Positions 3,372 to 4,221 of a stretch of 45,626 bases of DNA are shown piece after piece. Position 1 is the stretch's first letter, and each line of letters opens with the position of its first letter. Origin of the DNA: a virus (lineage: Duplodnaviria; Heunggongvirae; Uroviricota; Caudoviricetes); IMG/VR virus record IMGVR_UViG_2579779076_000011. The stretch is one strand, 5' to 3'. The translations under genes were made by a program, and so were the position numbers. The notes under the pieces are model-generated. The model worked only from the letters and a program-made list of their open reading frames with translations. It did no database searches and was not told the DNA's origin.

Positions 3372-3439
3372 AGCGACTCCTTGGTGATGTATACTCGGGA
3401 CCGATCAGCGAATATTGATCAGCTTCCATAGCGTCAGTG

Positions 3440-3680
3440 TCGTTGGTCTTTCCTCATCACAAGTTTGGTCACTTGTGATAAATCCGAATGGTTTGGTCGC
3501 CGTTCGGGGTAACTGGCCCGCCTTGTGCGGGTCTTTTGCTATCTAAAGGGTGCCGGTTACGTTTCCGGCGTCGTTATGTTTCCATCACGACCGTACGGGG
3601 CTGGTCTTTCCTGTTTTGAGCTGGTCAGGCTCATGGTCAACGCTGGTCAGGCGTGGTACTTCCTCCGGTCTTTCCCTGGT
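3440..3680 (-). repeat. cluster of GGAAAGACC / TGACCAGC motif copies (read on minus strand) within an apparently non-coding stretch
   Basis: Plus-strand GGTCTTTCC at 3445-3453, 3603-3611, 3667-3675; CTGGTCA at 3621-3627 and 3643-3649; palindrome TCACAAGT-N6-ACTTGTGA at 3457-3478. The same motif forms the start context of genes at 3020, 5685 and 8335. Confidence 0.35.
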
Positions 3681-4221
3681 GTCACGCTGCGGGTTTGGCC
3701 TCTCCTGTTGGGGACTCAGGCACAGCGATAAAACCTGGCTGTGTGAAAAAATGGCCCATCGTGCGGACTGGGCAAAGACTAAACACAGCAAATTGATGAT
3801 GGGCGCCCGGAATCGAACCGGGTAACGGGCAGGGAGTTCCCGTTAAACACCTGTTCACCACAACCGGGAGCGCACTCCGCCATTTCAAAATTTAACGACA
3901 AAGCTCAAAGTTGAGTCGATGAAGTGCGCTCTCGTGTTGTAGCCAGGACTCTTCCCTGGTGGTCACACCGTATCGCCTTGATGGTGAATCAATCGCTCAT
4001 ACCTGGCTGTGGCTTGCACATTCCGGCTACCTGCTATGGAGACAACGCGTTAAGGCTCCGCTTCCATCCAGACCGCTTCGACACATGTGCCATATGCCGG
4101 CGAAGTCTTTCCCTCTGTCATCGTGTTGGCGCCGACGCGCAAAATTTGATGCCGTCTTTCCGGCTGTCAGAACGTGTTTCTGAACAACTGCCGCTGGGTA
4201 AGCGTTGTTGATGAAAGTGAC

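Follow-up and report, generated by a model that had tools for sequence, protein, structure and literature searches.

A Conserved Pseudoknotted RNA in the Untranslated Early-Left Leader of an Escherichia coli Prophage

What does a lambdoid prophage carry at the place of the lambda N gene when no convincing gene can be found there? The question is raised by positions 3372–4220 of IMG/VR virus record IMGVR_UViG_2579779076_000011, a stretch of 45,626 nucleotides (nt) that was analyzed whole and is called the window below. A sequence-only reading of this DNA had offered small unrecognized proteins, a structured antitermination or regulatory RNA, and decayed genes as options for the gap. That the region is non-coding structured RNA is firmly established, and it contains a structured core that is shared by hundreds of enterobacterial phages, otherwise unrelated ones among them. 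RNAs of this kind, phage early leaders and stable structured RNAs, are known, whereas the family to which the core belongs appears to be undescribed.

A Covarying RNA Core

We derived the structure of the core from 38 non-redundant copies. Its elements in the window are as follows.

3943–4099, minus strand: core structured RNA of about 160 nt, made up of P1, P2, P4, P5, and a pseudoknot
4099–4079, minus strand: P1, a hairpin of 9 base pairs (bp)
4071–4031, minus strand: P2, variable in length and tip and closed by CYGG/CCRG
4030–4011, minus strand: invariant junction GUAGCCGGAAUGUGCAAGCC, directly after P2
3992–3978, minus strand: P4, 4 bp with loop UUCACCA
3986–3983 with 3969–3966, minus strand: pseudoknot, CACC with GGUG
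3959–3943, minus strand: P5, 5 bp with loop GAAGAGU in the window and GAAGAG across copies

Across the 38 copies, 94.6% of cells hold standard pairs, against 26–55% when the partners are slid by 1–3 columns, and 13 pairs change on both sides; none of 500 shuffles attains the observed score. The pseudoknot shows 98.6% pairing (25.7% in the register shifted by one) and becomes AACC/GGUU in three sequences. A covariance model of the core, R1, finds one copy in the window (4103–3930, minus strand; 131.6 bits, E 2.7e-43) and no second copy near pR or elsewhere in it, and also recovers 23 full copies in bacterial genomes outside the training set of the model. For 22 independent copies of this kind, 95.1% of cells form pairs, and compensatory change is seen in 14 of the 22 pairs, figures that somewhat favor the structure because the genome-copy alignment was fitted to R1. 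The window copy belongs to this new family, its helices and pseudoknot being kept by compensatory change and the invariant junction GUAGCCGGAAUGUGCAAG being present. Covariation analysis against relatives, which the sequence-only reading had proposed as a check, thus gives strong support to the core helices and the pseudoknot. G-U pairs are frequent at covarying positions (e.g., UG:32, GU:14, GU:10) and are tolerated on the minus strand only; the functional strand is therefore the transcribed minus strand, which argues against an element of duplex DNA.

Other pairings were considered and set aside. The consensus drawn automatically by RNAalifold, which pairs UCCGG with an invariant CCGGA, was dropped, as the local P2 closed by CYGG/CCRG covaries. 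A P3 hairpin between J2/3 and P4 gave weak folds that, in a rough extraction, were no better than those of shuffles, and the helices GUA/UAC and GGAAU/AUUC, which would join conserved segments, each set a variable strand against an invariant one.

Rfam contains nothing that matches the core in a scan of the whole window at gathering thresholds or in a scan of five related loci, and a permissive Rfam 15 scan (E up to 5) over 3943–4099 returned nothing but a 17.5-bit chance match to Zeta-pan. We found no earlier description of the core in literature on the P1 trnI–ban spacer, RprA-like prophage small RNAs (sRNAs), lambdoid phages without N, or structured-RNA catalogues, although an anonymous catalogue of 10,006 candidate structured RNAs from IMG/VR (PMC10690425) could hold the family.

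Distribution and Genomic Context of the Core

By BLASTN, 3928–4099 is 70–77% identical to non-coding DNA of otherwise unrelated phages, in the following places.

Epsilon15-like phages (Salmonella, Escherichia, Enterobacter, Klebsiella): between the terminase and portal genes
P1, P7, D6, SJ46, and more than 200 P1-like plasmids: between trnI and ban
Lambdoid phage mEp390: just downstream of the repressor gene
SopranoGao: a BLASTN match

Phages of Escherichia, Salmonella, Klebsiella, Enterobacter, and other genera all share the single-stranded junction without change. An invariant 19-mer, GGTAGCCGGAATGTGCAAG, occurs in at least 120 IMG/VR contigs, and among 185,579 species genomes it has 24 matching stretches, all from Enterobacteriaceae or Erwinia except for two doubtful metagenome-assembled genomes (MAGs). 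One of the two is a 1.75-kilobase (kb) contig assigned to a "Bacillota" MAG (L153); its core copy is full-scoring, at 169.5 bits, and the contig probably belongs to an enterobacterial phage and was mis-binned. The other, from an "Oscillospiraceae" MAG (L141), gives a partial match of 16 bits, and its 19-mer match is probably due to chance. The "Stenotrophomonas" vB_SmeS phages BUCT708 (L002, OM816834) and BUCT709 (OM816835) are syntenic with the prophage region studied here, to which they are 72% identical, and carry the enterobacterial core; their stated Stenotrophomonas host looks doubtful.

Genomic contexts were compared in a sample of 153 loci; counts of cargo modules cover 130 loci and those of terminators 99 contexts. 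The core lies directly downstream of a same-strand repressor gene in 79 of the 153 (70 with an S24-type cI and nine with a repressor of the window type); the remainder consists of 47 epsilon15-like loci and 27 others, among them the P1-like copies. No single protein recurs in all 153 loci, the commonest cluster being found in 63 and reflecting the lambdoid immunity context, and the core always has the same strand as the early transcription unit around it and as the neighboring transfer RNA (tRNA). At +100 to +800, 86 of the 99 contexts contain terminator-like hairpins, which is a rough count, coming as it does from a crude home-made scan with both false negatives and false positives.

Three reference phages illustrate these contexts. 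In mEp390 the order is cI stop codon, strong terminator, pL (TTGACA-18-TACATT), and core, the last beginning about 45 nt past the transcript start; past the core come about 300 nt of RNA, a stem like the P6 described below, an RprA-type seed, a terminator, and the early genes. In P1 the core is part of the C1-controlled ban operon and has the strand of ban; this operon also has an annotated dicF-like region and three tRNA genes. Epsilon15 has a truncated core copy near an annotated repressor site and upstream of a gene and an annotated terminator. Annotation of the core is lacking in the classic phage P1, in P1-like plasmids, and in the epsilon15-like phages of Salmonella; the P1 reference genome, which is otherwise densely annotated, has no feature on the core copy at 71102–71194 (L004). 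In two phages, protein-coding sequences (CDSs) annotated as "hypothetical protein" overlap the core RNA or its flank, namely mEp390 gp36 (L006, 2333–2575) and Tyrion gp54 (L007, 1347–1508). Both are probably spurious, and an R1 alignment made available as a family could clear such calls.

The Gap as an Untranslated Leader

The source of the window is an E. coli prophage: 3000–4400 is 99.9% identical to several E. coli chromosomes, and a match to it is present in 667 of 5426 complete E. coli genomes. The promoter, operator, and genes that frame the gap are listed here; lengths of proteins are in amino acids (aa).

4220–4248, minus strand: pL-like early-left promoter of the sigma-70 type, from a promoter scan, with −35 TTGACC (4248–4243), a 17-nt spacer, and −10 TAAAGT (4225–4220)
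4224–4242: operator TTACAA-N7-TTGTAA, overlapping pL, with the same half-sites as at pR
4101–4213, minus strand: 5′ leader with hairpins at 4210–4185 and 4183–4167, conserved across three immunity types
3372–3439, minus strand: 5′ untranslated region and ribosome-binding site (AAGGAG) of the 106-aa gene
3051–3371, minus strand: 106-aa protein of unknown function (phrog_2479), first protein gene of the pL operon
798–3020, minus strand: exonuclease-family protein of 740 aa
232–801, minus strand: Gp157 gene
Just beyond the left end of the window: left arm with int and a DUF4224 gene
4368–4796, minus strand: cI-like helix–turn–helix repressor
4880–5110, plus strand: cro/YdaS-like gene
5169–5645, plus strand: YdaT

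Given a repressor-controlled pL and its operator on the minus strand, the gap is the start of the early-left transcript, with the minus strand as the sense strand. Transcription would start near 4213, and conservation starts just past the −10 element in three lineages whose promoters and operators are unrelated in sequence. The right boundary of 4220 proposed by the sequence-only reading has to be moved, as the gene-free stretch reaches 4367 and includes pL and the operator at 4248–4220. Its placement of the gap where lambda has N holds: the gap lies directly downstream of the cI-controlled pL, and searches of Pfam and PHROGs found no N homolog among the 106-aa, 740-aa, and 189-aa products of the pL operon. 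The RefSeq annotation of the same prophage lists a Q antiterminator and no N. The 106-aa product has a PHROG match of E 2.4e-51, and the protein is kept in relatives despite diverged DNA.

We consider it almost certain that 3372–4220 is non-coding and forms the long untranslated leader of the cI-controlled pL operon on the minus strand. As the sequence-only reading had it, only short, mutually overlapping open reading frames (ORFs) are found; the longest between 3372 and 4367 have 95 aa (3924–4211, plus strand) and 91 aa (3550–3825, plus strand), and RefSeq has no CDS over the same stretch of a 99.9% identical E. coli chromosome. Its description of the gap as GC-rich is correct in relative terms (0.536, against 0.48 for the window and 0.386 for the immunity region) and does not hold in absolute ones.

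That the gap codes for small proteins (one or several), or is what remains of lost protein genes, an N-like gene for instance, is very improbable, even though ORFs of 68–95 aa exist on both strands and two on the plus strand (3525–3731 and 3959–4183) are uninterrupted in some relatives. The six longest ORFs have no match among 38,880 PHROG families, to which the flanking 106-aa and 740-aa genes match strongly. An alignment with eight syntenic relatives, which represent three lineages with three unrelated immunity regions, has conserved blocks broken by insertions and deletions of 1, 2, 4, 7, 8, 17, and 24 nt, and these blocks coincide with RNA helices. Most of the ORFs meet stops or non-multiple-of-three insertions and deletions in the relatives, and the two plus-strand ORFs remain open solely via compensating frameshifts, their middle translations being unrelated. 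Substitutions are level across codon positions (e.g., 9/8/7 and 21/21/19), so that the coding-pattern alignment suggested by the sequence-only reading reveals no third-position bias in the small ORFs. Its option of decayed genes fails for protein genes in the same way and survives for a single relic of an RNA gene, the tRNA-like module at 3860–3797 described below.

Elsewhere in the immunity region, the interval between the repressor and cro-like genes (about 4820–4870) has two similar operator-like sites, TTGCAAATATAATTTGTAA and TTACAGTTATGATTTGTAA, and the cro-like gene is frameshifted in the 99.9% identical copy of APEC20/16. Farther to the right, 9945–10142 (plus strand) scores above the Rfam gathering thresholds for isrK (80.4 bits), C4 antisense RNA (74.5), and the a1/b1 target motif (52.9). 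This trio constitutes a c4 antisense-RNA immunity/antirepressor control module of the P1/P7/P4 type, which is also present in a related locus (L019) and sits here in a prophage that combines lambdoid regulatory genes with P2-like tail genes.

RNA Modules around the Core

The first ~470 nt of the transcript, about 4213 to 3746, form a modular non-coding RNA, which is followed by about 370 nt more of untranslated RNA before the first protein gene. In addition to the core, the following features are found.

4164–4151, minus strand: leader hairpin GCCG-GAAAGA-CGGC, with copy 1 of the motif GGAAAGAC
4112–4105, minus strand: copy 2 of GGAAAGAC
3861–3939, minus strand: long stem P6 (inverted repeat I6), CAAC..GAGAGCGCACU / AGUGCGCUC..GUUG around a variable insert
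3797–3860, minus strand: decayed tRNA-like module starting GUGGUGAA, with an intact T-arm (3822–3806) and an acceptor-like 3′ strand, CGCCCAU
3746–3794, minus strand: sRNA-like 3′ end with RprA-type seed UGCUGUGUUUAGUCUUUGCC (3790–3771), terminator hairpin (3773–3754), and U6 (3751–3746)
3440–3745, minus strand: second untranslated stretch, rich in A (0.32) and C (0.30) and poor in U (0.13)
3675–3668, 3611–3604, and 3453–3446, minus strand: copies of GGAAAGAC in the second stretch
About 3533–3515, minus strand: hairpin GCCCGC-ACAAG-GCGGGC
3479–3456, minus strand: hairpin AUCACAAGU-GACCAA-ACUUGUGAU

P6 is a duplex of 16–18 bp with a fold energy of −30.8 kcal/mol. It takes the form CAACGAUGAGAGCAUU ... 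AGUGCUCUCAGCGUUG in relatives, and the motif of its 3′ strand, GUGCUCU[CU]NNCGUUG, is present on the sense strand in 91 of the 153 loci. P6 is possibly a processing stem of the RNase III type.

Directly after P6, on the same strand and at the same offset, 24–27 loci have an intact tRNA-Arg(UCU). Other loci have a tRNA-shaped GUGGUGA...CACCAC module in this slot, and P1-like copies have tRNA-Ile2(CAU) just upstream of the core, a tRNA found in 16 of 130 loci. The window element with a T-arm fills the tRNA slot of its relatives and starts GUGGUGAA, and for these reasons we read it as a decayed tRNA-like module; it is missing from the BUCT708 lineage. The T-arm-like element that the sequence-only reading saw at 3806–3822 is indeed present on the minus strand (CCCGG-UUCGAUU-CCGGG), yet it is not part of a tRNA: ARAGORN finds no tRNA gene in the window, and among the models of the Rfam tRNA clan the best score on the module is 19.3 bits, for tRNA-Sec, against a threshold of 47. 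Of the cloverleaf, the T-arm and a portion of the acceptor stem are all that is left.

The sRNA-like end scores 37.4 bits with the Rfam RprA model, below the threshold of 70, and shares 38 of 45 bases with the 3′ part of K-12 RprA, the terminator included. The seed GCUGUGUNUAGUCUU is found in 25 of 130 loci, always on this strand and combined with unrelated terminators, so the seed and not the terminator appears to be what is kept. In BUCT708 the terminator stem has compensatory changes, and some relatives end in GGCGG...CCGCC-UUUU terminators with weak DicF scores of 24–28 bits.

Two further features were seen near the core in some relatives. In L105 (3971–4017, plus strand), and also in L101, a downstream fragment, AGCUAGAUGGUGAGGUAAUGGCUCACCAUGGCGACGA, scores as small-subunit ribosomal RNA (rRNA; 38.3 bits, E 3.3e-07); we take it to resemble the helix 11 region of 16S rRNA. 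In L090, about +130 from the 19-mer, a hairpin and then a perfect rrn-type boxA, UGCUCUUUAACAAUC, stand right after the core.

The repeated motif and the inverted repeat pointed out by the sequence-only reading are both real. GGAAAGAC has six minus-strand copies between 4161 and 3030, of eight on both strands of the whole 45.6-kb window, and the last of the six is the ribosome-binding site of the 740-aa exonuclease gene. The array is lineage-specific, with 6–8 copies in relatives of this lineage and 0–1 elsewhere. The inverted repeat, given as 3457–3478, is slightly longer, with 9-nt arms at 3456–3464 and 3471–3479 that are 100% complementary. The second stretch, which also contains seven GACCA, has hairpin stems that covary between three lineages: the 3456–3479 stem is wholly different in the three diverged lineages while its loop, GACCAA, is unchanged.

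On the plus (antisense) strand, terminator-like hairpins are seen at 3515–3533 and 3549–3572, the former being kept in the L098 lineage with a compensatory change and a better T-run. The 3515–3533 hairpin could end a short antisense transcript across the 5′ untranslated region of the 106-aa gene; a search for a plus-strand promoter of such a transcript gave no convincing one.

What the Core May Do

The sequence-only option of a structured antitermination or regulatory RNA is borne out as regards structure, with its covarying core and pseudoknot, whereas antitermination is what we infer from position. The early protein genes lie behind untranslated RNA and an intrinsic terminator, and the core is the first conserved product; it is this arrangement that suggests a cis-acting, antitermination-like role. 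We accordingly prefer, as a possible rather than a probable reading, that the core is a cis-acting leader that keeps RNA polymerase going in phages without N. It would act in cis on the transcribing host RNA polymerase or on Nus-type partners and would replace the missing N-nut system, by a logic analogous to that of the put RNA of phage HK022 and of rrn leader antitermination and with no shared ancestry. As no partner protein is encoded nearby, any partner would have to be a host component, as for HK022 put. Transcription from pL would then survive Rho across about 850 nt of untranslated RNA and pass the terminator at 3773–3746 into the exonuclease, Gp157, xis, and int genes. Transcripts that are unmodified or processed would stop at this terminator and free the cargo RNAs, which would be tRNA-Arg in relatives and, here, an sRNA with an RprA seed acting in trans on host mRNAs.

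Support for such a cis-acting leader comes from the placement of the core after a repressor gene in 79 of 153 loci, from the absence of N, and from the intrinsic terminator between pL and the first gene; the perfect rrn-type boxA after the core is a lead from a single locus. Several observations weigh against it. The window has a single copy of the core and none past pR, whereas HK022 has both putL and putR, and the core has no detectable similarity to put, is more than twice its size, and has a complexity more typical of ribozymes, riboswitches, and ribonucleoprotein scaffolds. The P1 sequence contains no terminator-like element between the core and ban, and the terminator counts come from an error-prone home-made scan. 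Moreover, the steady company of tRNA, tRNA-like, sRNA-like, and rRNA-like modules with a terminator fits a cluster of stable RNAs equally well.

The last point leads to the main rival, which we hold to be possible if somewhat unlikely: the region would be a stable-RNA operon or precursor whose pL-proximal transcript stops at the terminator, with the core acting in trans as a scaffold, decoy, or inhibitor of a conserved host factor. Processing is predicted to involve RNase III at P6, RNase P at the tRNA-like module, and RNase E before the seed, and the downstream genes would be served by leaky read-through or by another promoter. In most contexts a terminator-like hairpin does lie within a few hundred nt of the core, P6 offers a duplex of suitable size (16–18 bp), and the cargo is always RNA, comprising tRNA-Arg(UCU) in 24 of 130 loci, tRNA-Ile2(CAU) in 16, the RprA-type seed in 25, and, in addition, the GUGGUGA...CACCAC modules, the 16S-like fragment of two loci, and DicF-like ends. 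The invariant junction together with the lack of a partner gene points to a host target, and T4 provides a precedent in rnaC and rnaD beside tRNA-Arg. This rival has difficulty with the 79 of 153 loci that place the core after an early promoter and ahead of protein genes of that operon, which requires transcription through core and terminator, and with P1, where the core is in mid-operon and runs straight into ban; nor is there homology to T4 rnaC or rnaD.

Another reading, which we think unlikely, concerns the repeats and the seed. The GGAAAGAC/GACCA array and the RprA-type seed would form an RNA–RNA circuit (AAAGAC:GUCUUU) with host RprA or a phage RprA-like sRNA, the leader serving as a sponge or as a self-regulated target. 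Six copies of GGAAAGAC on one strand within 1.13 kb, with 6–8 copies per relative of the lineage, invite this view, as does the complementarity of AAAGAC in GGAAAGAC to GUCUUU in the seed, and the minimum-energy fold joins copy 2 with the seed. However, the complementarity is just 6–7 nt and was spotted post hoc, the pairing lacks covariation (the BUCT708 seed has a G where U is needed, with no compensating change), and the array is lineage-specific while the seed is more widespread. Such a circuit would in any case cover only part of the region and be silent on the core.

Hairpins of variable length, invariant junctions, and a pseudoknot are also what a riboswitch-like sensor of a small molecule or tRNA would have, and an alternative 6-nt pairing of two invariant segments, GCACAU at the top of P1 with AUGUGC in J2/3, can be read from the alignment. 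A switch between P1 and this pairing would adjust early-left transcription or cargo maturation to the condition of the host. We judge this quite unlikely, given that no terminator/antiterminator or alternative sequestering the ribosome-binding site is seen adjoining the core and that the downstream genes vary by context; the alternative pairing, for its part, is wholly invariant, so that covariation is uninformative.

An element acting at the DNA level (for example a site for protein binding, a signal for replication or packaging, or a single-strand initiation site) is hardly credible: many copies do have a perfect DNA palindrome at the top of P1 (GGCACATGTGCC) and epsilon15-like copies lie between terminase and portal genes, but the palindrome is lost in variants that retain the hairpin, the covarying G-U pairs are A-C mismatches on the other strand, the pseudoknot covaries from CG to AU, and the strand is constant relative to the early transcription unit and the adjacent tRNA.

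Beyond the choice between a cis-acting leader and its rivals, we put forward, tentatively and with considerable doubt, that the core represents a new class of host-directed phage RNA unrelated to put and shared by lambdoid, P1-like, and epsilon15-like phages. It could be an RNA-only processive antiterminator and anti-Rho device that nucleates on RNA polymerase or Nus factors, or a decoy or scaffold for a conserved RNA-handling machine of enterobacteria, and would be the entry module of a mobile "RNA cargo cassette" (tRNAs, tRNA mimics, and sRNA look-alikes of RprA and DicF) deployed at the start of infection. The core is a candidate for a second RNA-based mechanism of early control or, failing that, for a novel stable RNA of phages with a host machine as its target. 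Phage pL leaders gather look-alikes of host RNAs, including the RprA seed, DicF-like ends, tRNA-Arg, tRNA-Ile2, tRNA mimics, and a 16S fragment, a collection through which phages may rewire the post-transcriptional networks of their hosts early in infection.

Comparison with Known Systems

For the passage of early terminators in lambdoid phages that lack N, we know of no mechanism other than HK022 put, which is defined by suppression of terminators in cis via the zinc-binding domain of the RNA polymerase beta-prime subunit. The core resembles put in being a cis-encoded structured RNA just past the early promoter of a lambdoid phage without N, and in about half of the 153 sampled loci a different conserved pseudoknotted RNA occupies the map position of put. 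Other phages without N have been assumed to be put-like (e.g., PMC12315714). The put RNA has about 70 nt in two stem-loops, begins at about +3 of the pL transcript, and has a second copy after pR (PMC9378689), whereas the core has about 160 nt with four helices and a pseudoknot, starts 45–115 nt past the transcript start (about 115 in the window), is present once per genome with none after pR, and also occurs in P1-like and epsilon15-like phages. No homology to put was detected: the best R1 score on HK022 24000–31000, putL included, is 6.4 bits (E 0.34), and putL aligned to the window leader by Smith–Waterman scores 18, where the null is 17 ± 2.2 and 101 of 300 shuffles reach that score.

The core region has the same map position as lambda nutL, between pL/oL and the first early-left gene, and the purine-rich GAAAGA and GAAGAG loops of its short hairpins resemble the GAAGA of boxB. 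The loops are of 6–7 nt, in contrast to the boxB pentaloop, and the window has no N homolog. As for canonical boxA (CGCUCUUA or UGCUCUUUAACA), the patterns [TC]GCTCTT[TA]A and GCTCTTTAACA match only L090 among the 153 loci and do not match the window.

The resemblance to RprA (RF00034), an Hfq-dependent sRNA of the host, is confined to 3790–3746, which covers the conserved stretch UGCUGUGU-UAGUCUUUGCCC and the Rho-independent terminator. The 5′ two-thirds of RprA, which include the rpoS-pairing region, are missing in the phage, the score with the full model is under the gathering threshold, and the phage module is the 3′ end of a long leader, unlike the stand-alone RprA gene. DicF-type prophage sRNAs offer a parallel in arrangement, a module of seed and terminator within a repressor-controlled early operon of a lambdoid prophage; they differ in that all DicF scores are sub-threshold, the window seed is RprA-like, and processing in the window is putative.

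T4 rnaC and rnaD (species 1 and 2) are likewise structured phage RNAs of unknown function, co-transcribed beside tRNA-Arg in a cluster with tRNA-Ile. Their order relative to the tRNA is different, and the best R1 score in the T4 tRNA region is 3.1 bits, so that no homology to the core is detectable. The likeness to rrn leaders is one of analogy only, as the boxA-like bases of the phage leader are paired within P6. Within this analogy, both are untranslated transcripts with stable-RNA cargo, a bracketing long duplex, and a tRNA right after the duplex, and the 3′ strand of P6 begins with GUGCUCU, comparable to the boxA core UGCUCUU.

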